A DNA stretch of 63,462 bases, counting the filler, from Stramenopiles sp. TOSAG23-6 (lineage: Eukaryota), in the NCBI GenBank assembly GCA_900128565.1. It is 22 parts of 22 records of this genome, joined end to end, with 100 filler letters (N's around TTAATTAATTAA, not from the genome) between each part and the next. Parts side by side here need not be neighbours in the genome. Positions count along the whole stretch, not along the records: positions 57,571 to 63,462 come from LT636805.1; 21 more parts are not named here. One strand, given 5' to 3'. Within the stretch, counting starts at the first letter, position 1. Every line of letters begins with the position of its first letter. Positions 10,333 through 63,334 of this stretch are shown one piece after another. Both the position numbers and the translations under genes were made by a program. Below the pieces are notes generated by a model. That model was not told the origin of the DNA. It saw nothing but the letters and a program-made list of their open reading frames with translations, and did not search any database.

Positions 10333-10486
10333 ATGTATTTTGGAAAAATATTTCAAAAAAAAATTTTGAAAATTTGTTAGGTACAANNNNNNNNNNNNNN
10401 NNNNNNNNNNNNNNNNNNNNNNNNNNNNNNTTAATTAATTAANNNNNNNNNNNNNNNNNNNNNNNNNNNNNNNNNNNNNNNNNNNN

Positions 10487-13692: not shown

Positions 13693-13883
13693 NNNNNNNN
13701 NNNNNNNNNNNNNNNNNNNNNNNNNNNNNNNNNNNNTTAATTAATTAANNNNNNNNNNNNNNNNNNNNNNNNNNNNNNNNNNNNNNNNNNNNAATATTTC
13801 AAAAAAAAACTAAAATTTGTTAGGTACAAAATTTCGTACGAAAAAAAATCGATTTTTTTGTTAAAAAAAAAAATAAAACATGC

Positions 13884-14752
13884 GTGTCATTACAGGTGGG
13901 TTTTGACCAGTGAACATATTCCAGCCTTTTTTTTCGAGAATTGAAGCTACTTGATAAATTGAGATGGATTTTTCAACGCTTATGATAGGAATACACGCAC
14001 AATCTGGTTCGATTAGTAGTTCAAGTTCAGGAATATTGGAAATTATTTCCTTAACTTTTGCTTCCATATTTTTGTATTGAAGTGCAAAATCTTTGTAACC
14101 ATTGTCTCCCATTCGAAGCATTGTACCCCAGGCTTGAGCCACAACTCCACCCGGTCGGCTACCTTGAAGGGTTGGTGTAATATAGAGACCTTCGCAGCCA
14201 TCAAAGCTTGGCATATAGGAAAGTCGCCTCAGCTGAGGGTCGAGAAAGCAAATAACTGATACTCCTTTACTGGCAAAACCATATTTATGTACATGTATTT
14301 TGGAAAAATATTTCAACAAAAAATCGTTAGGTACAAAATTTCGTACGAAAAAAAAACTTGAATTTGAAAAAAAATAAAACATACATCTACTGAAATTGTT
14401 GTGACACCTTCGATCGAGAAGTCAAATCCTTTTGATGGATGTATTTTTCCGGTTTTGATCAAATAAGATAATAGAAACCCACCAAATATTGTGAAAAAAT
14501 ATTTTTTTTTTTTTTTGCGAAAAAAAAATTCGTTAGGTACGGAATTTCGTACGAAAAATTTCAATTTTGAAAACATACTAGACAGTTATCTACATGCAAT
14601 CCAATATTATTTTTCAAAGCGATTTTTCCAAGATCAAAAATAGGATCAATAATGCCGTGTGTAAATGTTGGAGCGGATGCATATATAGCTACTGTATTAG
14701 GTGTGATATGCGCTTGCACAGCCTTTGGACAAAGTTTGAAGCCAGTCGTTCC
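13884..14752 (-). CDS. SGPL1: Sphingosine-1-phosphate lyase (exons 14752-14579, 14483-14385, 14292-13884)
   Basis: SAPTFTHGIIDPI, GLHVDNCLGGFLL, GFDFSIEGVTTISVDVHKYG (PLP lysine) and GLYITPTLQGSRPG. Confidence 0.9.
14293..14384 (-). other. Family intron, GT-AT, 92 nt
   Basis: gtagAT|GTATG..CCAAAATACAT|gta cat aaa; restores SVDVHKYG. Confidence 0.88.
14484..14578 (-). other. Family intron, GT-TT, 95 nt
   Basis: tgt cta|GTATG..CACAATATTT|ggt ggg ttt; restores HVDNCLGGF, and no AG is available. Confidence 0.85.
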
Positions 14753-17110: not shown

Positions 17111-17503
17111 GCTTCCAGGAGCTGGTGGCGAATTAATCTCAAAATTAGAAAAAGCATTGCCCGTTCGTACGTTTTCCTTTTATCATAGTGTACACTGTCC
17201 AACATTTCATTTTTTTTTTTTTACAATTTTGAATTTTTCGTACGAAATTTTGTACCTAACAAAAAAATATTTTTTTTCAATTTTTTTTTCGTAGGAAATT
17301 TTGTACCTAACAAAAACCAATAAATATTTTTTCACAAACATTTCATGTGGGTTACAAAAACGTGTATACAAAAAAGACGTAGTTAAAAAAGCTGTGCGCA
17401 CTTTGTTTGCAGCACTGTTGAAACATTCCTCATCAGCATATGTCACAACAGAAATCGATGAAGATAATTTTAAATCAAATACAACAATTTGTAATATTTG
17501 TAT

Positions 17504-17549
<46 letters not shown>

Positions 17550-18043
17550 ATTGAATTTTTTTTTTCGTACGAAATGTTGTACCTAACAAAAAAAAAAATT
17601 TGAAAAAAATTTGAAAATTGAAAATATACTTTTACAGTATAGGGAAAAGAGCTTCAGTTCAATTATGTAAATGGTTACAACAACAAAAAAATGCTTTACA
17701 GTTGTCCTATGACACACTTGCTTCAACAATCACTCAAAGAGCTGAATTTTTACTTGAATTGTTACCCGGATACCGTGGATTATATACAAATTTAAATGAA
17801 ATTCAAACATCAAATGAAACTTCAAAAAATTTTGAAAATTTTGAAACTTCAAAAAATTTTGAAAATTCTGAAAATTTTGAAAATTCTGAAAATTTTGAAA
17901 TTCCTAAATTACTGCGTGGAGTTTCTTCTTTAACCTTAAAACAATCTGATAACCCTAACCCTACTCATAAACAAAATGAAAAAAATGCCATTGAAAATTT
18001 ACGTACAATACTTGCATTTGCTGAAGAAGATCACGATGGGATT
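17111..18043 (+). CDS. Internal fragment of a large helical protein (3 exons)
   Basis: Exons separated by family introns ~17167-17343 and 17500-17642; AVRTLFAALLKH and RAEFLLEL segments. Confidence 0.55.
17500..17642 (+). other. Family intron, GT-AG, 143 nt
   Basis: att t|GTATG..GTACCTAAC..ACAGTATAG|gg aaa joins in frame. Confidence 0.7.
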
Positions 18044-25397: not shown

Positions 25398-27255
25398 TTA
25401 TACATTTCGTATTATTATACCACGTGGTTCAATCACTGGATTCACCATTGATATAAGCTGTTGCCGTCTAGACGAACGAAGTTTAGTAAGAATATTTTTT
25501 CTTTCTTTTATTTTTTTTCTATTTGTTTCCATTTTTATCTTTGGAGTTTCGTTTATACGTGACATTTGTACTTGGGCATAATCATTCATCATTTGACAAA
25601 AGTTCCGTTTATCATTTATTATAGATTTCCATTTTTGAATACCACTGTTTTGCAATATATATTTTAACAACGTTTTTGTTAGGTGTACATTTTCATTGTA
25701 AAAAACATATTCGTTTATGTACAAAATTTCGTATGAAAAACAAATAAATTTAAAATTCAATTTTCAAAACGTACATGTTTTGCATTTTGTCTAGAGGCTG
25801 TTCTGCCCATAATTCTTCATTACTATTTTCTATATTTTTACTGATTTCAATATTTTGAGAATTTTGGGAATTTTGAGGTATCAAAGAACAGATTTTTCTC
25901 ACAGCACGAAATCTAGGTGTTGCAGATTGTATTGCTGTTTCATGTATCATGAAAAACTATTACAATTTGTTTTTTTGTTAGGTACAAACTTTAGTACAAC
26001 AAAAAAAAATAGGGAAAAACAAATAATGAAAACCTACAGCGCGCTTCCTATTGGCAGTTACATGAAGTTTGTATTCAGCGATTTTCCCTTCTACACCTGA
26101 AATAGTATCAGAATAATTTGTGTCATTTATAGTATCATGAAAATTATCATTGTTTTTTTTTGCATTTTCTAATCGAATCACATCTGCAGGACGGATTGCA
26201 CTAGAACACCAATCCCAAAAAATACCACGAAGCCTTTTGCGATCGGAGGATGCATTCACCCATTGGATAGCTTGTAGCGATTCTTTCAGTTTTGAAGGAT
26301 TCATTGCAAGGTACATCTCAAAAGGTGTAAGTGACACTAACCCTAACCCTAACCCTAATTTTGTACCTAATTTTGTATCTAATTTTGTATTTATTTCATC
26401 TTTTGGCTGCTGTAAACGTTTCATTCGAGCACAGAGAGCAATTCGGCGTGTATCTAAAGCGTTCACCTCTCGTAGACGATATCTTAATCGTCCCACAACC
26501 AATGCAATTTCTTCACACTGAGTTTTTTTTAATTCGTGTATATTTTCGATATTTTCGATATTTTCAAATTGTTCTTTTCGTTTGATAAGAAAATTTCTAT
26601 TCAATAATGTAGGAGTTAATATATCATCGATTGCATCACGCCCCGCATGAAACACATGATCTGTCCCAATAGTGTCTATTGGGAAAGGGGGTAATCTCGT
26701 CGATACTTTGTGAACAACTTTGTATTTACTATTGGTATTGAACGTTTCACCTTTACAATCATCTGTCACGAAATCTTTTTCTGTGAAAAGTTCAGAATTT
26801 GACATACGAATCAACATTTCTTGTTCAAACTTTTGAAGAACTGAACTATTTGCTATAAGCCAACATAATGCAATGTATAACTCCCGAGATGAACAGTTAT
26901 TCAAACAAGTACCTCCGTGAAAATCCGCGTCTGATAGGTCTCTGTAACCCCATTCTATTAGATAATGTCTGACAAAATTATACACTATATCCAAATCTAT
27001 TCGATTGTTTACATCCATTTTTTCCCACAATGCCATAAGGCTAATATTGCCTTTCACAGAGGGCACTGAAAAATCAAGAATTCGAACCAATACTAACTCA
27101 TGCAGTGTACGAAGCAGCGTCACTTTTGCCTCAGACTTGTCAAATTTGCCACGCCTTAATGTCTCTGGGCTTATTGTTACTCCAAAGTATTTGAGAGAAT
27201 CACACACTAAATGCGCCGCTGCTTGAATGTCTTCTCGACATACACGACGCGCCAT
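25398..27255 (-). CDS. TEDC1: Tubulin epsilon and delta complex protein 1-like (3 exons)
   Basis: ISPETLRRGKFDK, SSRELYIALCWL and IFWDWCSS match TEDC1/C14orf80 motifs. Confidence 0.78.
25645..25774 (-). other. Family intron, GT-AG, 130 nt
   Basis: aacAT|GTACG..CACCTAAC..GCAAAACAG|t ggt joins in frame. Confidence 0.68.
25942..26037 (-). other. Family intron, GT-AT, 96 nt
   Basis: gct|GTAGGTTTTC..GTACCTAAC..ATGATACAT|gaa; removes the in-frame TAA. Confidence 0.72.
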
Positions 27256-27586
27256 TATTACACTTTTTGAACAGGGTAAGAATAGATGTACTTTTACTTA
27301 AAATGTAATGCAACTCTCAGATTCTCTCTTATAGCTTATTTATTTTGTTGACTTTTTAAGATTAGAGTGATTTTATTATCGCAATTTGCGGTCTGCATTT
27401 TTTTTTTGCGTAAAAATCTTCNNNNNNNNNNNNNNNNNNNNNNNNNNNNNNNNNNNNNNNNNNNNTTAATTAATTAANNNNNNNNNNNNNNNNNNNNNNN
27501 NNNNNNNNNNNNNNNNNNNNNTTTTTCGTACGAAATTTTGTACCTAACGATTTTTTTTGTTTTTGAAATATTTTTCCAAAATACAT

Positions 27587-29975: not shown

Positions 29976-32210
29976 TTATAGTTGTATAACATTTACATCA
30001 GCATCAAAAGATTTTTCCGAATCTGACTTTGGGTCCTCAAGTGATCCACCAAACCCATTTTCATTTATATTCCAATGTTGTTTTTCCATTTCTCCTGGAA
30101 TTACAATTTCAGTCTCATTTTCCTCTTCAGTGTCATCAAGACTGATATCACTATCGATGTCTTCACTACCAGATGAAACATCACCTATATTATCTACATC
30201 ATCATCATTTATATCCGGAGAAACCTCGTTAGTAGAACCTTTTGAAATTGCCTCTTGGATTACTGAAGTACAGGTAAATGTTTCTGAAATTGTCTCTGAT
30301 GTTGCCGATTTTTTACACGTAAATTTTGGTATCGGAGGAGGTAATATTTTTTCTGGATGAAGTACTTTAATTTGATCTAGTTCTGGTCCTTGTGATGAAT
30401 GCATAGTAGAAAAATCTGGTAATGATTCATTTGGATACATAAATATTGTAGTTAGTGCTATTATCGCTTGAGATAATTCTGGTTCGCGAAACAATGTTCT
30501 GTCTTGATTTTTGCTACTGTTTTCCTTTGTGTCATTATCATTAGAATCATTTGAATCATTAGAATCATTTGGACTATTTAAGGAGTTTGGAGACATAAAT
30601 AATACTAAGACGAATTGGCTAGCAATTGTTTTAGCTCTCTTTTCGGTTGTTTCAATATCATCTTTTGATGTGACTAGTTTGAATATTAAATTTCGGATTA
30701 TAAAAGATAATGCATATAAATGTTGGGGTGGGACTAGTAGTGTCTTATTATCAAATAACATTTTGATTGTTGCACATCGATCACTGACATCTGGAACACG
30801 CGCAGCTCCTAACAAGGCATAGAAACATGTAACTGGAATATTATTGTGAAAATATGCCAAAAAAATTGTTTTTTTGTTAGGTACAAAATTTCACACAAAA
30901 CAAAATTTAGGTAAAAAATTCATGATGAAAACATACATAATTGGTGTATTTAGCAATTTGAACCATTTCGATAAAAGCCTTCCAACAGAGAGAATTGCTA
31001 CTTGACCAGTGCCAATGTCTTTCTCTAAATTCAAATGACAACCCTCATCGTATTGATTACACAAATGATCTAATAAATCATTTATTTTTGAGTTATCAGC
31101 GACATCTGATGGAACTTCACCAGAAAATAAATAAGTGATATTAGTATCAAGAGCAAATGTACTGAGATACGAAACACAATCAGTCAATATGACTGGCAAT
31201 CTCCCATGTGACTTCAATGTAACACCAAAAACACCTCCATTTTGTGTGAGATTTATCTTTTTAATACAATTTGCTTCATGCTCCTTGTTGACCACTGCAG
31301 CAAGTTCTTCAGGTGGTGGTATTTTAGTCTCGACAGAATGTATGACATTGCTGTTATATTTTACAAGTAATTTTTGCAGGTGACAAAAATTTTGAATGGC
31401 ATTGCATAAAAATATTGAACGTGCTGATATATTATGAAAAAATATTTCAAAAAAAAATCGTTAGGTACAAAATTTAGTACGAAAAAAAAACGAATTTGAA
31501 AAAAAAAGAATACATACATCCTTTGACTTTTTTCATAATATTAAACACTTCTCTATTACACATGACAATTTTATTCCGCGTTTCTTCTAAAATTTGATAT
31601 TTTTTAGATAGTCCGATGTATTGTGAATCATATATTTTTTTCGGTTTAAAAATATATATAAAGTACAAAATTTTGGTACAGTTTTTTTGTTTTTTTTTGG
31701 AAATTCAATTTTGAAAACATACATATTTGTGGCTGTTTGATCATCTCCATTTTCACTTTCGGAGTGAATTTCCTGCTTATAAAATCGATAGTCAATTAAT
31801 AGTTCTTCACGTCTCGCAAACAATTGCTTTAGCAAAGGCATTTCAGCTTCAAATCCTTCAAGTGGTGTTAATAATAAGTCCTGGCTTACATCGACGAAGT
31901 GATACTGCATGAAGCCTCTGACTAAAGCTTCCGCACATTCACTGTTGCAGTCATGATTACTTTTGAAGCTGAAGATAGATTTTGCGTATTGTAATGCAGC
32001 ATCATTAGCTGCTTGCTGTTTCTTGATGAAATCAATTGCTGAGTGCTTTATCAAACTTAAAGAAGTTTCTATATCTTTGCTTTCGTCCATTTCAGTGAGA
32101 AAAGCCATTTCATCAAAGTCTTTTTTTATCGAAGCAGAAGTTCCAAGAGAATCACGCGCTTTCGTAAGTACTGAACGACCAAACAATTCTAATTTCCTAG
32201 AAAAATTCAT
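29976..32210 (-). CDS. BAR-like coiled-coil plus degenerate RhoGAP protein (4 exons)
   Basis: N-terminal helical BAR-like region (RREELLIDY); RhoGAP-like VFGVTL..LPVILTDCVSYL and VGRLLSKWFKLLNTPIIP. Confidence 0.7.
30838..30936 (-). other. Family intron, GT-AT, 99 nt
   Basis: attAT|GTATG..CAATAATAT|t cca; restores RhoGAP PIIP. Confidence 0.78.
31427..31517 (-). other. Family intron, GT-AT, 91 nt
   Basis: ggAT|GTATG..CATAATATAT|ca gca. Confidence 0.72.
31616..31722 (-). other. Family intron, GT-AT, 107 nt
   Basis: aatAT|GTATG..CACAATACAT|c gga; branch box is degenerate. Confidence 0.7.
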
Positions 32211-33642: not shown

Positions 33643-34450
33643 AATTGTCTTATCGTCACTTCCACTCACAATATTTAGAGAATCTGGAGAAAAATGAGCA
33701 GATCGAACCCAATTTGAATGACCCAAAAGAGAGCATTTAAAACGCCTAGATGGCATTCCCCATACCATGATACTTTTATCATCACCAGCAGTGAGCATAT
33801 CTTTTCCATCGGCTGAAAAATTAACACAACGAACTGCCCTTGTATTTTGGAAAAATATTTCAAAATTTTTTTTTTTTTTTTTGAAAATTTGTTAGGTACA
33901 AAATTTCGTACGAAACCAAAAAAAAAAAAAATTTGAAATATTTTTGTAAAAAAAAAATAAAACATATCTGCATGAACTTTCGCACTTGTGTGTTTTCCTT
34001 GTACTGTTGGTCTCCAGACTCGAACGGTACGATCTGCTGAAGCAGTGGCAAGATTATTTCCATTTGGTGAAAATGAACAGTCAAATATATCACCGTGGTG
34101 CCCCGTGTAACGATACGCTCTCAATTGTGACTTAAAGTTCCAAACCATGACAGTTGCATCTGAGGAACAGGAGGCTAATTGTTTCATTGAAGGAGAAAAA
34201 CTGAGACCATTGACACGTCCTTTATGACCACGAAACGTTTTCTATAGTGTGTTTGATTTGTATATAAATGGTATAGAGTAAATGAATGTCGTATATATAA
34301 ATATAAGGGGAGAAAGAAGAAGGAGGGAGAAAAAAAACACAATTTCTATTTCAATGAAGGAAACAATGTCTATAGAATATAATGTACCTCTAATTTAGGA
34401 GCAGATATCAATGGCATCGAGTATAAAGAATTATCATCAGACAATGTCAT
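33643..34450 (-). CDS. POC1: POC1 centriolar WD40 protein, N-terminal exons (34450-34388, 34241-33968, 33838-33643)
   Basis: [37 protein letters not shown] and [13 protein letters not shown]. Confidence 0.9.
33839..33967 (-). other. Family intron, AT-AG, 129 nt
   Basis: gcAG|ATATGTTTT..CCAAAATACAAG|gg gca; restores [13 protein letters not shown]. Confidence 0.75.
34242..34387 (-). other. Ordinary GT-AG intron lacking family motifs, 146 nt
   Basis: gag|GTACATT..CACTATAG|aaa acg; joins PKLE-KTFRGH. Confidence 0.75.
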
Positions 34451-39397: not shown

Positions 39398-39652
39398 GTA
39401 TATTATATTTTTTTTTTTACAAAAAAATCGAATTTATTTTTCATACGAAATTTTGTACCTAANNNNNNNNNNNNNNNNNNNNNNNNNNNNNNNNNNNNNN
39501 NNNNNNTTAATTAATTAANNNNNNNNNNNNNNNNNNNNNNNNNNNNNNNNNNNNNNNNNNNNTTTTTTTGTATGAATTTTTTTTTCGTACGAAATTTTGT
39601 ACCTAACAAAAAAATTTAGATTTTTTTTTCAAAATACTTTTCCAAAATACAT

Positions 39653-40070
39653 ACCCTACAATGTTGAAAGACAAGGATGGAAATAAAGTTTGTGTTGTAC
39701 AAGCCTGGGCTTATGCACACTTGGTCGGACAAGTTACCGTCTATCTTGATTATAACACTGGCATAGTGTCAAAATGTATTGGGAAACCAAGAATACCATA
39801 TATTAATAAGAAAATGGAGGTTTCAAATTTAACTAACTATGGCAAATGTAGTAATGATAATGGTAATAAATTGTCTTGTGAAACAAAACGAGGAGTTACA
39901 TCTATTCGAAAATGTTTGTACGTTTTCATCATTCATTTCAAATGTTCAAATTCAAATGTTCAAATTCAAATGTTCAACTTCAAATGTTCAACTTCAAATG
40001 TTAAAATTCAAATGTTAAAATTCAAATGTTTTTTTTTTTTGTAGTAAATTTGGTACCTAACAAATTTTTT

Positions 40071-40110
<40 letters not shown>

Positions 40111-41095
40111 TTGCCAAAGGTAATTCCGACGCAACCAATGCATTACAAGAATATTATAAAGAAGCAAATAAATTAAAAAAAAAGGTAATTGCAAATATTG
40201 AATCTACCCTTTGTTTAGAGAGATATCCAGGAGGTAATTATGGTACATTTTGTGACGAGGATGATTCATCTTGGTCACAAGGAGGCGACGCTTGTCAATT
40301 TGTTACCCGATCTATGTACGTCATCATTATGAACTTCATTTTATTTTTTTTAATGTCAAATTCTATACCCAACAAAAAAGTTGAATGGAAAATATTTTTT
40401 CATAATATATGTTAGCCGTTACACCAACTGCTGATTTGTCTATTCAAAATAGTGGTGGTTGTAGGTCAGATATAGAAAAGGGTAACTTTACATATGATGA
40501 TGCTTACAAAATCTTACCCTTTAGTAATACACTTGTCATTATTGAAATGACAGGAAGTGAAATTGTAAAATTGTTAAATGAGGCTGTGTACAGTCCAATA
40601 ACACGCCCTGCTAGTTATCCTTATGGTTCAGGTCTACGATTTCATACAAATATGTCACGTAATTTTGGAAAACGTATTTATAACGTACAAGTAAACTCAC
40701 AACTAAAAAGTGATTGGGTTAGTCTTGATATATCAAAAGTCTATAAAGTTGTAACGAGTAGTTATTTACGAAAAGGAAAAGATGGATTTTCCACATTTTC
40801 TTTGATTCCAAAAGATAAAGTTGAGGATACATATGTAGAATTAGTTGAAGGATTAATTAAATACGCGGAAACTCTTCATTCTCATGGAGAAACAATTAAA
40901 CCAACTCCTTCAAGTGAGAGAAGTACACAATTGTATATTGATATTAGTGGATGCAATCATTCACAACGTCAATCACCAAAAGATTGTGATCTTGTTTTGA
41001 GAGCTTCAAATAGAAACAAATCTGCATTGATATTACCCGGATTTGTTTTTTCTTTTCTTAATGTAATTGTTTCTTTGTTTTACATTATAAAATAA
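39653..41095 (+). CDS. 5'-nucleotidase (UshA/CD73 family), C-terminal exons; possible GPI anchor
   Basis: YPT..VVQAWAY..VG, IQNSGGCRSDI, LPFSNTLVIIEMTGSEI, YPYGSGLRF, YLRKGKDGF and a hydrophobic C-terminus; introns ~39918-40115 and 40316-40410. Confidence 0.9.
40316..40410 (+). other. Family intron, GT-AT, 95 nt
   Basis: tctAT|GTACG..ATACCCAAC..CATAATATAT|g tta. Confidence 0.78.
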
Positions 41096-45627: not shown

Positions 45628-48600
45628 AGGACCTGGTTGTGAAGTATCAAGTGTTAAAATTTTTACAGTAAAATGTCTTGAACAAAATTCAACAAATACG
45701 AAAACAAACCTTTTGCAAAAACTTTATCATGAAGCACTACGATCGCATTTGTTCGCATCTCTTTTGAACAAGGAAAAAGAAGCACTCGCTGCTGAAAGTT
45801 CGCCTTGTGATGTACATGGTGCAACTTTCAGTAATGTTATGGAGGAACCAAAAGGTATAAAATTCGAATTTCCACTCGAAGAATCGGAATTACCAAAAAC
45901 TATAACAAGAGATCAACAGCAGACTTTATTATCTGGATTTTCACACACGTTAGACTTATCTGCAAAGGTACTATCTTATATGAAGACAACATCAGTCGGA
46001 AAAATACTAAATGACAGTGTTGATACAGGTGGGTGTGCTCTCCACGAAACCAGAGACATATCTAAATTTACAAAAGAGCTTTCATCGTGTACACCAAACT
46101 TTGTATTGTGTATTCGACCCAATACATGTAGCGAAAAAGAAGAAAAAGATACTGAATTGTCAAAATTTGATGGTGCAATTGTGACGCAACAGATTCAGAG
46201 TTGGAATTTGAAGTCACTCATCACTGTTTGTTCAAAAGGTATGCCCTTTCGTATACCATTTAAAAAATTTCTCATTCGTTATCATATTTTTGCTCCGACG
46301 TATATGTTTCGTGACATCACTTTCGGTACTATACCTCAAGAATTGGTCATTGAATTATGTGCAAGATTAATTGATGTTATACATGGACAATCGATCTTAT
46401 TCAAAGGTGTAAAAATGGGTATGACTTGTGTTGTATTCCGCTCTGAAAAGACTCTTAAAATGCTTGAAAAAAGTCGAAATTTTGAAATAATGGGTGACGT
46501 TCTGAACACACAAAATTTCAAATTTGCAGAGTCAAAGCTTTTAGTGATTCAACGTACAGTAAAAGCTTGGGTGTACCGTCACAAAGCCGTATATCAACTA
46601 GGATTATTGCATCAAATGCGAGTAGCTTGGAAGAAGAAATCATTTGATGCATTAAAAAGTTCTCTTGCAGAAGCATCCATTGTTGAAAGTTCAATAATTT
46701 CAAAGAAAAAGCAACCATGGCCTTTCGCGACATATTTTTGTTCAGAAATGAAATTACGAAGAAAACAAATGGCTGATCTTGAAGAACGACAAAGGATGGG
46801 AATAACTGTTGAGCATCTTATGGATGGTGATGCGTACGCTAGACTAGAGGAATTTGGTGATGCCTTAGATCAATGTAACAAAGTAGGATTGATAAATCAG
46901 AATGTGTATTGGTTAAAGAAGGAATACAAAATTGCTTTAAATCGACGTAAAGCTGAAAATTTAATGACAGAAGGCCTGAGAAATTTTGACAAAAAGAAAA
47001 TTCTCGTCGCCACAGAGCTTGCACAGAGACCTGATATGCGAACAAAATATGGAGAAATTTTTGCTGATCAAGTCGAAGAATTAGGTAAAGTGTTGGAAGT
47101 TATACAAAAAGAAATTCCTATTTTCGAGGAACTCGAGCATCTTCTCAGTATAGGCTGTATACGAGGTCAACCGGGTAACCTTGATACATCCTCAGTCACA
47201 TCTGAGACTGAAAAACTTCTGAATAATGTAGTTGTATCTCTGAAATGTATTCCTGGAGGTATAAAGTCAATGAGAAGTAAGATTTTAGTACGATCTGCCC
47301 ATCTCATCCAAGAAATAAGAAAATATTTGTTGGAGGAAAATGATGAAATGATTGAAGACTGTCTACGTCGATTTTCGAAACGTGAAACTTCTAATTGTGT
47401 GAAAACGGAGTTTAACTTAATTAGAAAAGATTTTGAAAATCGAAAAGTAAAAAAGGTTTTGTGTAATATTTTAGAGACTGGTAAAGTTTCTGGTGTGTAT
47501 GGATCTGTCGATACAGACAATATTAATGTAGAAAAACTGAAACTTGCTATTAAAGAAGCATCTGAAGTTGCGGTTTCCGAGCGTTTACAAGGTATGTTTT
47601 TTTTTTTTTTATGAAATTTTTTTTTATAGGAAATTTTGTACCTAACAATTTTTTTTATATTTTTTTTTGAAATATTTTTCCAAAATACAGACACATCGAC
47701 TTTACTAGCTGCTGTATCGGGTGTTGTTCGATGTAGAATTGCGTTGAAGGCTGCGTTCGATTCGCAACAAAAATTAGATGAACTTATTGATATACAAGAA
47801 AAGAAGTTGATCGGTGAGAGATTTGAAGAAGAAAAAGGCGTTTTCGATATTTTGGATAGTGAGCTTACAATAGAGAAACTAGAAATGACCAAAATATTAG
47901 GCACCCTTAATGAAGAAGAAATACAAAATTTTCGTGCTGGTGTAGAAAATCGAAAAATGCAACAAGATCATTTTGATAAAATATCTAAGGCTAAACATGC
48001 TATTGCGTGGGAGAAAAAAAAGGAGAGCATGCAATTGGACGTGAAACTTTCCTGGGAGAGATTGAAATTCATGTTATTAGAAGCTGTCGCATCGTATCAA
48101 CACCAACTTACAAAAGAAGAAATTAAATTGATTGAGCATATTTGGGAAGAACACGATGTAAGTGATCAATTTCTCAGGTATCTTCGTATAGGTATGGGAA
48201 CAGGTCCTGTTGGAGAAATGGATACATCCTTAATAGACACCAACAAATTAGATCTTACAATGAAACGCGCTGATGCACTTGAAAACTTATCAGAGGAAAC
48301 TCGAATGTTGCAGCGAAATTCGCGAGTCATTTTCAAGCTTAGAGTTGCTTTAAAAAGTGGCACTTGGTCAGATGTTGTTGGTGTGATTTCAAACTATCGC
48401 TTTGACGTAAAATGTGATCCGTATAATGCATTAGTTCTTCCTCATTCAGATGCAGAAGTTGACCGAGCATTTTTAGAGTGGCAATATTTTAATGAAATAG
48501 ATAGATTGACAGTGGCGCTAGAAACTGGTGGAGGCAAAGGAGATATAGGTAGCATGGATTACCGAGATGTATCTACTAAAGTTTTAGGTACAGCAATAGA

Positions 48601-55535: not shown

Positions 55536-57425
55536 TCAATTCAGCGAGAGAGTGGCGGACCGTTCCCTCTGAGACTCAGCCCCGAATTGAGTGGGTCCTG
55601 GATTGCAGTACGCTTCTTCAAGCTTCCATTTCTGTAACATTATCCTTAGGTGTTGAAACGCCTTCCCCTGCTTTACATCCACAACAACTGGACTATATTC
55701 CCCACGGCAAGTGTCAAGATTAATGCGCACCAACGCTAGTAATGGAACAACTTGAGGGGTCCAATTGTTTTCTACATCACTGGCAGCTAGGTTTCTGATG
55801 GTGCAGATCGAGCCAGTCAAATCTTTCCGGCTTAGCGCATAGGCAGCAGTCCTGCCCAAAGCATTGCCGTACATGCAATCAAACTCGGTCGGAAACCCAC
55901 AACGAGCTTGGTACCCAAAAAAGTGAGTGAGAGCCCCGAATTTTCCATTGTACGTTCCATTGTCGGAACGGCGTTTCATCTCTTTTTTCACTAGGTCAAG
56001 CAACAATTTTTCTGTTTCGATCTGGGACAATTCCAAGGTGCCATGAATTTCACGCTTCATTATTTTTTCTTGAATAAAACCCGGTAAATACTCAAAAAGC
56101 ATTCGTTGCCACGGTTTCAAGAGTCGCAACGTTTCCTCCAAGCCAGCGTTGAGATGCTCAGCACCTATGTTCTTTAGCTCCGTTAGAAGGCTGGCAACTT
56201 CAGGAATGAAGGTAAGAAGGCCTTCAGGAATCAGAATTACCCCAAACTGTTTACCCTGCAGCGATCGTAGACAGACCATGTCCGCAATTTCAGTCACAAT
56301 CATTGAGAGTGTTTTCTGATTTTCCCAAATGTCTTCGCCAATCAACACTGCGTTAGGACAACACTGCAGCCCTACTTCAAGGACCATGTGGCTTGGTCTA
56401 CGGCCCATCATTCTTAAAAAGTAAAAGTACTTCTTGTTGGAGTTGCAATCGGTTGCAATATTACCACATAGCTGAGAACAAACCCTGCTCGCAGAATGAA
56501 ACCCAACGGTTTCTTCTACGTACTTGTTTATCATGTCCCGGTCTATAGTTGCGGGTATCGCAGTCACCGCAGTAGAGGTACCTTGTGCCAACATGTATTC
56601 CGCCAAAGACAGCGTATCTGACGCGGTGTAAGTCCCACCTACACACACCAAACCATCAAGCGATAATTTGAGACAGGTTGCATTGATTGCTTTTAGCTGC
56701 TCTTCCTTGTACATTTGGTCGACAGACCTTCCAAGCACGTCTACACCACCAGTATTTCGAAAATCTTCAAAAAGTTCCTCCGTAATCTCAACGCACTCCC
56801 CTTTGAACAGTCCGAGGGTTCCATTTTTGAACCCGTAAAGAACGGCATCCTGGTTCAATAGTTTCAGTGCATTATACAAGCCCTCAACGATGTTGTGGGC
56901 GCCAGGGCAGGGACGCCCGCAGAAAACAACCCCTACACGTTTGCAGGGGGATCCTGCTGCTTTGGCTTCACCAATTCCCAGATTTTCTCCTCCAGTATGC
57001 AGCTCATACACGGCGTCACTATTTGTGATTAGGTTTGGATACAGCTTGCTGAACTGCGAAGTAGCAGAATTGTCCACTGGCGTCGTCTCCGTTTGCACAA
57101 ATCTGAAAGCGTTGGAATGAAGCACACGTGGACTCTTGACCGCGTGGGCCACCCTGGTGCGAACGAACGGGAGGCTTAACGTCGCTTCCGAATCTCTGTT
57201 AGTTCCACCAACCTTGTCTCCGACTCTTTGCCGTTTTACAGGACGAGAGTTGCTTTCATTTTCGGACAAACCCCCACGCTGTTCCAGTTCAAGCCTCAGC
57301 ATAATGCTTATGTCTGCGGCCCACTTGGTAGCCTCAAACTGGATCGGGCCCGGACTTCGATACTTGTCGTGGAGTTTCCACTGTTCCCTGCTCTTTGCAA
57401 ACGTCAGAAACGGCTTCCCGGTCAA
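55536..57425 (-). CDS. Pyrophosphate-dependent phosphofructokinase, C-terminal half of a two-domain fusion
   Basis: YRSPGPIQF ends the first PFK half; the second half has GVVFCGRPCPGAHN, IPATID.D, YFLRMMGR, HFFGYQARC and YCNPGPTQF. Confidence 0.9.
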   Translation of the reverse strand: MTGKPFLTFAKSREQWKLHDKYRSPGPIQFEATKWAADISIMLRLELEQRGGLSENESNSRPVKRQRVGDKVGGTNRDSEATLSLPFVRTRVAHAVKSPRVLHSNAFRFVQTETTPVDNSATSQFSKLYPNLITNSDAVYELHTGGENLGIGEAKAAGSPCKRVGVVFCGRPCPGAHNIVEGLYNALKLLNQDAVLYGFKNGTLGLFKGECVEITEELFEDFRNTGGVDVLGRSVDQMYKEEQLKAINATCLKLSLDGLVCVGGTYTASDTLSLAEYMLAQGTSTAVTAIPATIDRDMINKYVEETVGFHSASRVCSQLCGNIATDCNSNKKYFYFLRMMGRRPSHMVLEVGLQCCPNAVLIGEDIWENQKTLSMIVTEIADMVCLRSLQGKQFGVILIPEGLLTFIPEVASLLTELKNIGAEHLNAGLEETLRLLKPWQRMLFEYLPGFIQEKIMKREIHGTLELSQIETEKLLLDLVKKEMKRRSDNGTYNGKFGALTHFFGYQARCGFPTEFDCMYGNALGRTAAYALSRKDLTGSICTIRNLAASDVENNWTPQVVPLLALVRINLDTCRGEYSPVVVDVKQGKAFQHLRIMLQKWKLEEAYCNPGPTQFGAESQRERSATLSLN

Positions 57426-57805
57426 GATTGGTGACGGGGCGATTATTGGGGCAGGTACTGTAGTGACAAANNNNNNNNNNNNNNNNNNNNNNNNNNNNNN
57501 NNNNNNNNNNNNNNTTAATTAATTAANNNNNNNNNNNNNNNNNNNNNNNNNNNNNNNNNNNNNNNNNNNNCACGGAATATCAACAGCCATCGGTTTCACA
57601 AACAAATGTTCCAAGAACTCATCTAAAAGAGTCTAGACAACATCGAGCACCACGACGAAGACATAATGGCAAGTCTAGACCACAGAGCGCAGCTCCTACG
57701 AGGGGAAAATCAAGACGAGGAAAGCAAGTAAGACCAACGACAGCATACCGTAAGAAAAAAATCATTTCGAAGAAAAAGAAAGAACCAATAACACCACGAT
57801 CTGCA

Positions 57806-60307: not shown

Positions 60308-62046
60308 ATGTCTTCTATAACTGCGTTTGTAGTATGCGTTGCTACTGGTTGTGCATGGTGCTATGCTCGTTCTAGACATGGCCCTGATATCTTTAAGAAA
60401 GTTCCAAAATGGCAACGAAAGAAAATGCGTCGAAAGTTGCGNAAAAAAAAAGCAACGATTAGTTCAAATTCAGCGCAAGAAGGAAAAAGAGACAAAGCGG
60501 AAACTAAAACGATTTAATAGTACGTGTGGTGATGTATTTGTACAAGGTTCTGATCGTGTATGGATGAAAGATGATGATTGGCTTGATAATCAGGTTAGAG
60601 CTTTACCCGCAATGGCTGAGTTCCCACATCTTATCAAACCTGCTCAAACAGCTCTCAAAGCTTGGCGTATACGCTTTAATAAAACTACTTGGAAGCGCCT
60701 TTTTAAATTATCTGGAAGAGATGGGCGTGGAGATGGTGCAAAAGAGCGTGTATTGAAGGAATTGAATGAATGTGTCCCAGTAATTGCATATGTTCTTGAC
60801 GCTGTCTCAAGATGGAATAGAAAATCTAAAGAATCTAAAGCTTCCAGAGAGTCAGACTCTAAAATCACTATAGTTGACCTTTGTAGTGGCTTTGGGATTT
60901 TGTCAATGTTTTTATCAGAAATACTCCCACCTGAAAAAGTAAAAGCAATAGTTTTAATTGATAAAATGTGGCCTCTGAAAAATCAATCACCAAAAACAAA
61001 TTCAAACCAAATTTCGTGTGAACATTTAACTACACCTGGTTGGCCTATTGCATTATATAAACGAAAAGTCAATATAAAAGCAAAACGAGAATTGAGACAA
61101 ATACACAAATACGTGTTTGATAGAGCTTCTGAATCTGGACCGACCATTATTATAGGAATACATTTATGTGGAAGTTTAAGTAACAGAGTATGTTTTCAAA
61201 AAAAAAAAAAAAAAAAAATTCATACGAAATATTTTTTCATACGAAATTTTGTACCTAACAAAATAATTTTAAAAAATTTATATATTTTTTTACAATACAA
61301 GCAGTACAACTTTTTAATCAAAGAAAAGATGTCAAACTCTTAATATTGAAGCCATGTTGTTTGCCAGGATACAAAGCTGTCCATCAAGAGCTTGAATGGA
61401 CTTTAGGTAAGCATCATTTCACAGCTGCGGAATTATGTATGTTTTAATTTTTTTTTTTTTTTCCAGTAAAAAAAAAAAAATCGAATTTTTTTTTTTTGGT
61501 TTTAATTTTGTACCTAACAAATTTTTTTTTTTAGAAAAATTTTGAAATATTTTTCCAAAATACATATGAAAATAATAATAATAATAACAAAGATATGGAA
61601 ACCCAAATGTGTTCAAATGTCAAATATGTATTGAAAAATAGTACAAATAATCAAAAATGTCTTAGTAAGAGTTGTACTGGACATCATCATGAAAAAGAAG
61701 GATCAAGATTTGATAAATGGTGTAATCATGTATGTTTTTTTTTTTTTTAACAAAAAAATCCAATTTTTTTTTTCGTACGAAATTTTGTACCTAACGATTT
61801 TTTTTTAGAAAAATTTTGAAATATTTTTCCAAAATACATTTGTTCTTAGGCATTGACACCTCTTCTTTCTCTTCTTCTTCTTCTTTTTCAGATGATAATA
61901 ATCATAATCATGATACTAATGCACATAGTATTATTGGCAATTTGGAATGTGTTGGTAAAAAAAGTTCTTTTATTGCGGGTTCAAGAAAACCATTTGATAT
62001 TTCTTCATGGAAAAAACATCTTGTTGACATCCAAAGTTGTTCTTAA
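60308..62046 (+). CDS. Class I SAM-dependent methyltransferase-domain protein (4 exons; frameshift at N ~60442)
   Basis: IVDLCSGFG, GIHLCGSLSNRAVQLFN and LILKPCCLPG after splicing. Confidence 0.82.
61188..61300 (+). other. Family intron, GT-AA, 113 nt
   Basis: aga|GTATG..TACAATACAA|gca gta; only this join reaches LILKPCCLPG. Confidence 0.8.
61437..61565 (+). other. Family intron, GT-AT, 129 nt
   Basis: ttAT|GTATG..CCAAAATACAT|at gaa. Confidence 0.78.
61730..61839 (+). other. Family intron, GT-AT, 110 nt
   Basis: aatcAT|GTATG..CCAAAATACAT|ttg ttc. Confidence 0.8.
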
Positions 62047-62367
62047 TAAAAATAAAAAAAATTGTTAGGTACAAAATTTTTATAAAAAACCAAAACCAAA
62101 ACAAAAAAAAAAAAATTTCAAAATTTTCAAATGTATTTTTTTTATACTAAACTACTATATACTATAATAACTATAATAAAGAAATTTCAAAAGTCTTTTT
62201 CTTTTTTGTACTACAGTATATACTAGGTTAGTATTCAAAACATTTCGTACCAAATTCCGTACCTAAGGATTTTTATTAATTACAACATTCAAGAGATTTT
62301 AGTAAAAGTCTTTTTTTATTTTTTTCGAATTTTTTTTTTTTTTTGGTTTTCATACGAAATTTTGTAC

Positions 62368-63334
62368 CTAACAATTTTTTTTAGATTTTTTTTTACATTC
62401 AAGGGATTGGAGAATCTCCTCAGCAGCTCTTTCACCACTCAACATTGCAGCATGAACTGAACCTTGATACTCTCCATCAGTTGCTTCGCCAGCAAAGAAC
62501 AAACAATTTGGAATATTCTTATCCACATTACTCCCTACTGGTTCAGCTAAATCAAATATTGTGAAGAAATATTTTTCAAAATTTAATTTTTTTTAGTTTT
62601 TTAGTTTTTTAGTTTTTTAGTTGGTTAAAAAAAAAAAAAAAAAAAAATCTTTTTTGTTTTTTTGTTTTTTTGTTTTTTTGTTTTTTTGTTTTTTTGTTTA
62701 GGTATGAAATTTCGTATGAAAACCAAAAAAAAAAAAAAATGAAATTCATGATGAAAACAAACATTTGCATCATCATCTTTTGTATTCATATTATAGTAAC
62801 TATACGCGCCTCTACTAAACTCATCTTCACCCCATCGAGTCACATGAGAAAACACCAAAACACTTCCACATATAGATTTCGTGTTTTCATTACTTTTGTG
62901 AATTGGATGATTTAGATTCATTTTGATCAATTTTTTTTTTTTCGTGGATTTCGTGGGATTAGGGTTAGGGTTTTCAAACATTTCTTTCAAACTACATAAT
63001 GCTGCAATAACAATTTCATTGTCAGTCAAATCTCTAATTTTAAGTGCTTCATTGCCAACAATTGATGCAGATAAGACAGGTATTCCTTTCAATTTATAAT
63101 GATTTTCAAATACACTCACTTTCAAATGTTTAGGGTTAGGGTTAGGGTTAGGGTTAGGGTGTATAGTAGACAGATTCTTCTCGAGTGTGTGAAGTTGGTT
63201 AGGGTTAATATTGGCTAAAAAAGGAGCATTTTTTGGCCAAAAACAAGATTCAAATTGAAGAATAATTTTTGTGTATTCACACACACCAATACGTTGAATA
63301 GCATTTTGTTTTTTTATTGGAAGAGGTGGATGAA
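62368..63334 (-). CDS. Flavin-dependent amine (polyamine) oxidase, C-terminal exons
   Basis: F.PPLP..KQNAIQRIG, KIILQF..FW, TRWGEDEFSRGAYSY, LAEPV and LFFAGEAT..YQGSVHAAMLSGERAA. Confidence 0.9.
62554..62762 (-). other. Family intron, GT-TT, 209 nt
   Basis: aat|GTTTG..CATACCTAA..CACAATATTT|gat tta gct; gives DDANDLAEPV. Confidence 0.68.
63130..63160 (+). repeat. Interstitial (TTAGGG)5 inside coding sequence
   Basis: Five exact telomeric hexamers encoding PNPNPNPNP on the minus strand. Confidence 0.9.

Follow-up and report, generated by a model that had tools for sequence, protein, structure and literature searches.

What defines the 3' end of an intron that stops one base short of an available AG? 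This question is raised by positions 61188-61300 of a 63,462-nucleotide stretch of DNA (the window) from Stramenopiles sp. TOSAG23-6 (GenBank assembly GCA_900128565.1), which joins 22 parts of 22 records end to end with 100 filler letters between parts, and which is AT-rich (approximately 31-33% GC overall and 23-44% GC per 2-kb bin). An earlier note on this sequence had read these positions, which interrupt a methyltransferase-like gene, as a GT..AA intron and had offered them as a direct test of AG independence. Here we find that the intron is, by alignment, one copy of a repeated family, and that it is the family, more than this single copy, that points to 3' ends set by position.

Homologs place a junction after AA

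Consistent with the earlier description, the 5' border reads ...AACAGA followed by GTATGTTTT (61182-61196) and the 3' border reads ...TACAATACAA followed by GCAGTA (61291-61306), such that an intron written GT..AA ends at A61300 with an AG completed by G61301, one base downstream, and a second AG at 61303-61304. The features in question are:

61188..61300, plus strand: intron 1 of the methyltransferase-like gene, 113 nt, written GT..AA, placed by junction scoring and in-register family alignment
61300-61301 and 61303-61304, plus strand: two nearby AGs, neither of which yields an open frame from the GTATGT donor

We assembled splice products by coordinates and scored them with a profile built from 37 homologs of the encoded protein. 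The product of 61187/61301, which reads ...HLCGSLSNRAVQLFNQRKDVKLLILKPCCLPG across the join, scored 283.9 bits and matched the profile as a single ungapped stretch over the junction (..giHLCktLsvrAielfn..LkPCCLPg), bearing out the proposal that a cut after AA restores ...LILKPCCLPG. Use of the AG that ends at 61301, by contrast, shifts the frame as had been claimed: the 61187/61302 join reads ...SNRQYNFLIKEKMSNS, meets a stop after ..KMSNS and scores 224.4 bits, against 223.3 bits for the unspliced reading. Either nearby AG breaks the frame when paired with the GTATGT donor. When 52 homologs are aligned, the 15 columns flanking the junction run on without a break. Immediately before the junction the homologs have R (24), H (13) or K (9); immediately after it the 47 ungapped homologs have A (45) or F (two) and never V, with I, V or A at the second position in 45; the closest ortholog, P0039 (52% identity), reads LSNRAV. 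A junction shifted by two bases (61185/61299, K for R) is indistinguishable by profile (283.2 versus 283.9 bits) and was rejected as R is the commoner residue and is the one found in the closest ortholog. On these homolog scores, a 113-nt intron is needed here and its productive junction is 61187/61301.

The AG at 61187-61188 recurs at 61300-61301, and placements written AG..CA (61187-61299), GT..AA (61188-61300) and TA..AG (61189-61301) specify identical mRNAs. Junction reads therefore cannot tell whether the AG is "ignored", and the counts of reads ending at 61300 and 61301 that the earlier note had suggested cannot separate GT..AA from TA..AG. Its description of the intron as a direct test of AG independence does not survive this, since the TA..AG placement produces the same mRNA while using the AG, and is further weakened by a GT..AG intron of the same length, 61192..61304, that is set aside by homology only. 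Nearby GT..AG pairs that keep the frame number 12, and all fall below 283.9 bits (233.5 to 277.8); the best, GT61192..AG61304, leaves protein length unchanged and scores 277.8 bits. Because its borders are degenerate, the intron is by itself a weak test, and other copies of its family test AG independence better.

The intron belongs to a repeated family

An 11-nt core within the intron, TTGTACCTAAC, has 41 matches at no more than one mismatch in the 63 kb against 1.15 expected, and none of 100 shuffles reached 41. The core is present in 38 of the 79 AT-rich islands of the window. Seventeen complete copies align end to end, with the intron at 61188-61300 in register with the other 16, which argues that this intron is one copy of a repeated family and not a chance oddity. 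The aligned copies lie in genes for the methyltransferase, a lyase, a WD40 protein, a myosin and others. Their consensus opens with GTATGTTTT.., continues through runs of T and A to ..TCGTACGAAATTTTGTACCTAAC.., and closes with ..GAAATATTTTT(C)CA(A/C)AATA(C/T)AT; invariant across all 17 are the 5' GTA and GTACCTAAC. The 5' hexamer is GTATGT in 11 copies, GTACGT in three and another GTAnnT in the remaining three. In the intron at 61188-61300 the second A of the core (61258) lies 42 nt before the 3' end, and the shared modules are:

61188..61196, plus strand: 5' splice-site module GTATGTTTT, with GTA in 17 of 17 copies
61249..61259, plus strand: family core TTGTACCTAAC, a candidate branch site of the CTAAC type, with 41 matches and invariant in the alignment
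61283..61300, plus strand: 3' module TTTTTTTACAATACAA, whose family counterpart is ..ATATTTTTCCAAAATACAT or ..TTCACAATATAT

There are 36 sites with an exact core, of which 23 could be scored (six of the other 13 have their 5' side in a gap and seven have no GTAnnT donor). We picked 3' ends from the terminal motif alone, blind to reading frame. The motif-picked end was in frame with the GTAnnT donor in 16 of the 18 copies with a score of at least 0.75, a threshold set after the table had been seen (binomial P = 1.7e-6), and in 17 of all 23 scorable copies (8e-5). Pfam searches of the short exons beside other copies returned nothing useful; among JGI metagenome contigs, a protein scan found no relative and a 23-nt family core had no exact match.

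The predicted 3' ends of the family appear to follow position and not AG

The 3' ends of the 17 copies read AT in 14 and TT, AG and AA in one each, the AA being that of the intron at 61188-61300. Position -1 is thus T in 15 copies, G in one and A in this one, position -2 is A in 16 of 17, and position -3 is C in 11, T in five and A in one. The distance from the core adenosine to the 3' end ranges over 34-49 nt, and this spread argues against a fixed interval between core and cut. In seven copies the predicted 3' end lies beyond an AG that follows the core, and six have no in-frame GT/GC..AG pair within 18 nt. When equivalent placements are allowed, an end in AG can be written for only two of the 17 copies and an end in AC for six, and GT is the sole 5' reading common to all. 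The family evidence thus supports 3' ends set by position in the conserved 3' module and not by AG. The claim that position is chosen over an available AG stands on this evidence (15 of 17 copies end in T and seven of 17 skip an AG) rather than on the intron at 61188-61300 itself. By the same evidence, AG-independent 3' ends are a predicted property of the whole family.

Two copies in a sphingosine-1-phosphate-lyase-like gene can be placed against solved structures:

14484..14578, minus strand: family copy written GT..TT, for which the only other placement is TA..TG
14293..14384, minus strand: family copy written GT..AT

At the first of these, 5eud_A residues 278 and 279 align to the last residue of the upstream exon and the first of the next, and the flanking residues are likewise consecutive in 8cmx (241/242), 4q6r (261/262), 8ayf (238/239) and 3maf (282/283); no canonical in-frame alternative exists within 18 nt. 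At the second, the upstream exon ends at 5eud_A residue 309 and residue 2 of the next exon aligns to 311, and residue 1 therefore to 310; the junction is again consecutive in 4q6r (293/294), 8ayf (270/271) and 8cmx (277/278). Comparison with the lyase structures thus fixes both predicted introns to the residue, one as GT..TT and the other as GT..AT. A further copy, at 33840-33967 (minus strand) in a POC1-like WD40 gene, starts with ATATGT and ends in AA in the family register, with G following. In the structure 9qzc_AM the two exons are separated by a single residue (they end and resume at 131 and 133). This spacing fits the family register (AT..AA) and not a GT..AG reading, which adds a codon; the shifted placements, TA..AG and AT..GG, would alter that residue.

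Three other copies have unusual borders or lengths. At 17500-17636 (plus strand) the frame-consistent 3' end falls one base before CAG, and GTAT at both borders makes GT..CA, TA..AG, AT..GT, TG..TA and GT..AT equivalent; the host gene has no recognisable homolog, and this junction is placed by frames alone. The copy at 39918-40117 (plus strand) is a long intron with a tandem repeat of approximately 14-15 nt (..TTCAAATGTTCAA..) and a GTACGT donor, and its in-frame acceptors (e.g. 40118) do not coincide with the AG at 40118-40119. The copy at approximately 13830-13885 (minus strand) has a GCATGT donor, a GC-type 5' site, and has lost its 3' part in an assembly gap.

The host gene carries three copies

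The gene that hosts the intron at 61188-61300 is, by homology, a Methyltransf_32-like methyltransferase, encoded at 60308-62046. Exon 1 has a weak match to PF13679 (E 0.0011, 19.4 bits against a cut-off of 27, profile positions 19-115 of 143). At E of no more than 1e-3 the protein has 38 homologs of 132-422 aa, most of which carry PF13679, and 15 more among longer proteins (423-2000 aa); the homologs come from diatom and dinoflagellate sources, and the few that are named are from diatoms and Symbiodiniaceae. P0001, from an independent assembly, is 99% identical to exon 1 and is an unspliced read-through. No spliced protein from the same species was found among proteins of 132-422 aa or 423-2000 aa. 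The remainder of the gene is organised as follows:

60308..61187, plus strand: exon 1, identified from open reading frames, PF13679 and the 38 homologs, with the start codon as in P0001
61301..61436, plus strand: exon 2 (AVQLFN...LILKPCCLPG...HHFTAAEL, ending in phase 1), identified from the homolog profile and the P0039 ortholog
61437..61565, plus strand: intron 2, of the same family, GT..AT (equivalents AT..AC and TG..CA), with a motif score of 1.00 and in frame
61566..61729, plus strand: exon 3, an open reading frame
61730..61839, plus strand: intron 3, of the same family, GT..AT, identified from the motif end and a homolog junction match
61840..62046, plus strand: exon 4 with the stop codon, within the open reading frame 61795..62046

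All three introns of the gene are among the 17 aligned copies. The counterpart of exon 2 in P0039 reads LSNRAVHMFN..LILKPCCLPG..HHFTALDLY. Intron 2 skips an internal AG and has no canonical in-frame alternative within 18 nt, and its removal gives ..ELY/EN, where P0039 has ..DLY/RE. Intron 3 skips one internal AG, as well as a TCTTAG that lies 10 nt downstream of its end, and the resulting junction, WCNH/LFLGID, aligns gap-free with P0039 (WCCHMHQGID) and P0004 (WSDNLYKGVD).

At 60442-60452 an N and an A-run break the frame of exon 1, such that two frames are needed to read it (..RRKLX and XKKKQRLVQ..). P0001 reads straight across the counterpart of this segment (..RRKLRKKKQRLVQ..), and the break is probably a homopolymer-length error of the window assembly.

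Possible signs of a mobile element

A perfect 2-nt direct repeat lies at the borders of 11 of the 17 copies (AT in 10 and AG in one, at 47592-47690). This suggests that splicing takes out the element together with a single unit of a 2-nt target duplication, which would explain the variable last bases. No empty site turned up to compare with. In the counterpart of the intron at 61188-61300, P0001 has the same exon end and intron start and then diverges within the intron.

Family copies also occur between genes. The interval 62047-62390, which separates the methyltransferase gene (plus strand) from a convergent amine-oxidase-like gene (minus strand), holds two diverged copies with cores at 62072 (minus strand) and 62364 (plus strand), each antisense to the gene it abuts and starting at or near the stop codon of that gene. 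Linkers of the form N..TTAATTAATTAA..N lie mostly inside family copies (near 10390, 12590, 13790, 18200, 21490, 27520, 33450, 39470-39590 and 45570); the assembly evidently broke at the repeat, leaving several introns incomplete. Intergenic copies in both orientations and assembly breaks within copies fit a mobile repeat.

Two further segments of the window are of separate interest. At approximately 26338-26362 (plus strand) three CCCTAA units, which are telomere-like, lie just upstream of a core variant, GTACCTAAT, in an AT-rich stretch antisense to a long minus-strand open reading frame (25978-27297). At 55539-57518 (minus strand) an exon for a pyrophosphate-type phosphofructokinase corresponds to residues 492-1120 of P0054, a fused double enzyme of 1120 aa, with 99.7% identity; beyond the gap at approximately 57519 the window lacks the N-terminal half. 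Members of the 90% cluster of P0054 come from ENA, JGI, Logan and NCBI records, and the organism or its close kin would therefore be widespread in environmental data.

A proposed explanation and its alternatives

We consider it likely that 61188-61300 is a real intron and a copy of an abundant introner-like element, similar to miniature inverted-repeat transposable elements (MITEs), that carries its own splicing signals. These signals would comprise a GTATGT-type 5' site, a CTAAC-type branch core inside GTACCTAAC, and a T-rich 3' module ending ..A(C/T)A-N. Removal would most likely be by the major spliceosome, with the second-step cut made at a fixed place, the end of the 3' module, whatever the last base (mostly T, and A here), and not at the first AG. 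The alignments and structures described above show the junction, membership in the family and, for several copies, ends other than AG. Several features of the intron bear on the type of spliceosome. GTATGT at 61188-61193 conforms to the GTRNGT-like 5' site of major (U2-type) introns, and CTAAC within GTACCTAAC at 61251-61259, followed by the T-rich 3' module, resembles a U2-type branch region at the level of sequence. With the GT donor the intron ends in AA (61299-61300), and a U2-type AG end is obtained only in the TA..AG placement. The window itself contains no recognisable small nuclear RNA (snRNA), and Rfam and tRNA scans of it were empty. What we infer in this explanation is that removal takes place at the RNA level, which spliceosome acts, where within the 2-nt repeat the cuts fall, and that the element came from a transposon.

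A broader form of the proposal, which we hold tentatively and at slightly less than even chances, is that most introns of this AT-rich protist derive from one young introner family and are removed by an ordinary spliceosome at a position-set, non-AG 3' site with the consensus A-Y-A-T. Cleavage would then be indifferent to the last base (T, G or A) and in one copy to the last two (TT), and only the rule for the second step would have changed. In such a system the copy at 61188-61300, which ends in AA with AGs one and four bases beyond, could act as an internal control.

Several observations weigh against an introner-like element with a position-set 3' end. Two of the 18 copies miss the frame test, at 17579 and, by one base, at 30884. 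In the intron at 61188-61300, GT61192..AG61304 keeps the protein length at a cost of only 6 bits, and the TA..AG placement leaves the mRNA identical. Six of the 17 copies, including this one (GA versus AA), match one flank base only. Terminal inverted repeats are short and weak, as in intron 3 (ATGTATGTT and AAAATACAT, 9 nt, 89%), and the terminal arms of the intron at 61188-61300 are low-complexity A/T runs only. Pairing of the intron ends as a ruler is likewise unsupported, as four copies fold no better than shuffles (z -1.1, -0.3, -0.4 and -2.3) and only one of them pairs its ends in the minimum-energy fold.

That the same mRNA arises from a TA..AG intron (61189-61301), with the AG used and the 5' cut made one base inside GTATGT, appears unlikely to us. 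G61188 and G61301 are the same base, so the products are identical; the AG at 61300-61301 is the first after the branch-like core, and in a second copy (donor 17500) an AG likewise ends one base past the frame-consistent end. However, an AG-ending placement is allowed in only two of the 17 copies whereas a 5' GT fits all of them, the AG in question has an AAG context, and the copy at 14484-14578, which can be written only as GT..TT or TA..TG, argues that an AG is not needed. In spliceosomal removal the 5' cut is, moreover, made first and would be fixed by pairing to GTATGT, which would count against a cut one base inside it. We judge similarly improbable a canonical intron of the same length running from GT61192 (GTTTTC) to AG61304 (AAGCAG) and giving ..SNRVLQLFN... 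Such an intron, which a gene finder bound to GT-AG would choose, is in frame, free of stops and, at 277.8 bits, only 6 below the best product. It would nevertheless place V where none of 47 homologs has V (A in 45) and L where one of 47 has L, and would bypass a strong, family-invariant GTATGT four bases upstream; the same shift yields no GT..AG pair in most other copies, and any canonical option is missing from six of the 17.

Removal by a machinery other than the spliceosome, either through DNA excision like that of ciliate eliminated sequences or through an RNA machinery as proposed for euglenid nonconventional introns, is in our view very unlikely. The short direct repeats and variable 3' dinucleotides would suit it, as would the ambiguous borders, which those systems share (PMC11282704). 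Yet GTATGT and CTAAC are conserved, in the expected order and only in sense orientation inside genes, the folds of four copies showed no stable end-pairing structure, the intron is present in two independent assemblies, and the standard genetic code fits the genes. Least probable of all is an artefact or a dead gene, that is, a 1-nt assembly error near the junction or a pseudogene. The same gene does carry a homopolymer or N error (the frame break at 60442-60452 relative to P0001), and the intron contains long runs of A and T. Runs inside the intron leave the frame untouched, however, and with homology resuming in one frame from the first codon after 61300, any compensating error would be confined to the 1-2 bases next to the junction. 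In addition, the four exons are open and match P0039, and 16 other copies have the same geometry. Finally, the sequence does not fit a U12-type intron: the 5' motif here is GTATGTTT, with G and T at +5 and +6, versus [G/A]TATC[C/T]TT as given in 10.1101/2020.10.12.336362, and the branch-like A is 42 nt from the end (34-49 nt over the 17 copies) versus approximately 9-15 nt.

If RNA bears out the explanation that we prefer, an introner-like element with a 3' end set by position, the family would separate the two ends of the splice-site rule, pairing canonical-looking 5' and branch sites with a dispensable 3' AG. Position-based 3' choice could then be tested with the natural variants AT, TT, AG and AA, and with AGs skipped both upstream and downstream of the cut. 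Gene finders bound to GT-AG would mis-annotate most genes of this genome, yielding here either 61192..61304 or a truncated model.

Comparison with known transposon-derived introns

Introner elements are MITE-like, intron-generating transposons known, for example, from Micromonas and Aureococcus (PMC11282704, PMC12130899). The present family resembles them in its many near-identical short introns per genome, its short border repeats, its element-carried splice site and its sense copies in genes (PMC11282704, PMC12130899). Introners differ in being GT/GC..AG, the element either bringing the AG or co-opting it from the duplication, whereas 16 of the 17 copies here have no AG at the frame-fitting end; the inverted terminal repeats of this family are also weak. 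Neither this family nor any GT..AT introner was found described in the literature searched, where partial coverage of subscription journals makes this weak evidence of novelty.

Non-canonical introns derived from transposons have been described in Fritillaria (AG-AC and AG-AT), Amoebophrya (no preferred ends, hairpins), Polarella and euglenids (PMC11282704). The MITE-derived introns of the tunicate Fritillaria borealis, which are removed by an adapted major spliceosome (PMC11282704, PMC13326754), are like the present family in being transposon-like and non-AG at the 3' end (AC, AT in Fritillaria) (PMC11282704). They begin with AG, whereas here the 5' end is GTATGT, only the 3' end departs and the host is a protist; an AG..CA placement can be written for 61188-61300 only, and the family 5' end is GT. 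Amoebophrya A25 and A120 also have repeated introns with direct repeats over the borders, which are hence ambiguous (PMC7789003). Unlike the present family, with its strongly conserved 5' site and branch-like core and its lack of a supported hairpin, the Amoebophrya introns have no preferred dinucleotides and have inverted repeats of 8-20 nt that form hairpins, in genomes where U1 snRNA was undetected and coding GC is 54-58% (PMC7789003), against approximately 31-33% for the window. As a candidate source of the window, Amoebophrya is rejected on this coding GC and on 29% identity, and Parmales on their GC of 49.8-64.8% (PMC10328945); by GC, an uncultured marine stramenopile such as MAST-4A (33.9%, PMC5269757) might suit.

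The U12-type introns of Physarum polycephalum share non-AG borders with this family (GT-AT, AT-AA and AT-AT), and their proposed source is a transposon that has inverted ends and duplicates 2 nt (TA) (10.1101/2020.10.12.336362). They differ in that they carry a U12 5' motif and their branch motif lies 9-12 nt before the 3' end (10.1101/2020.10.12.336362), where the present copies have GTATGTTT and 34-49 nt. Euglenid nonconventional introns likewise have variable non-GT-AG borders and duplication-like junction repeats, but have no conserved 5' GT or polypyrimidine tract and have a stable structure that joins their ends (PMC11282704); no such structure emerges here, given the pattern of z values (-0.3 to -2.3) and the single copy of four that pairs its ends. 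Fritillaria, Amoebophrya and Physarum provide the closest known kinds, with transposon-derived, non-canonical introns. These known cases alter both ends or the whole signal set (Fritillaria, Amoebophrya and euglenids) or involve the minor spliceosome (Physarum), and we propose with moderate confidence that the present family differs from them in that only its 3' end departs, the 5' site being textbook and the core branch-like.

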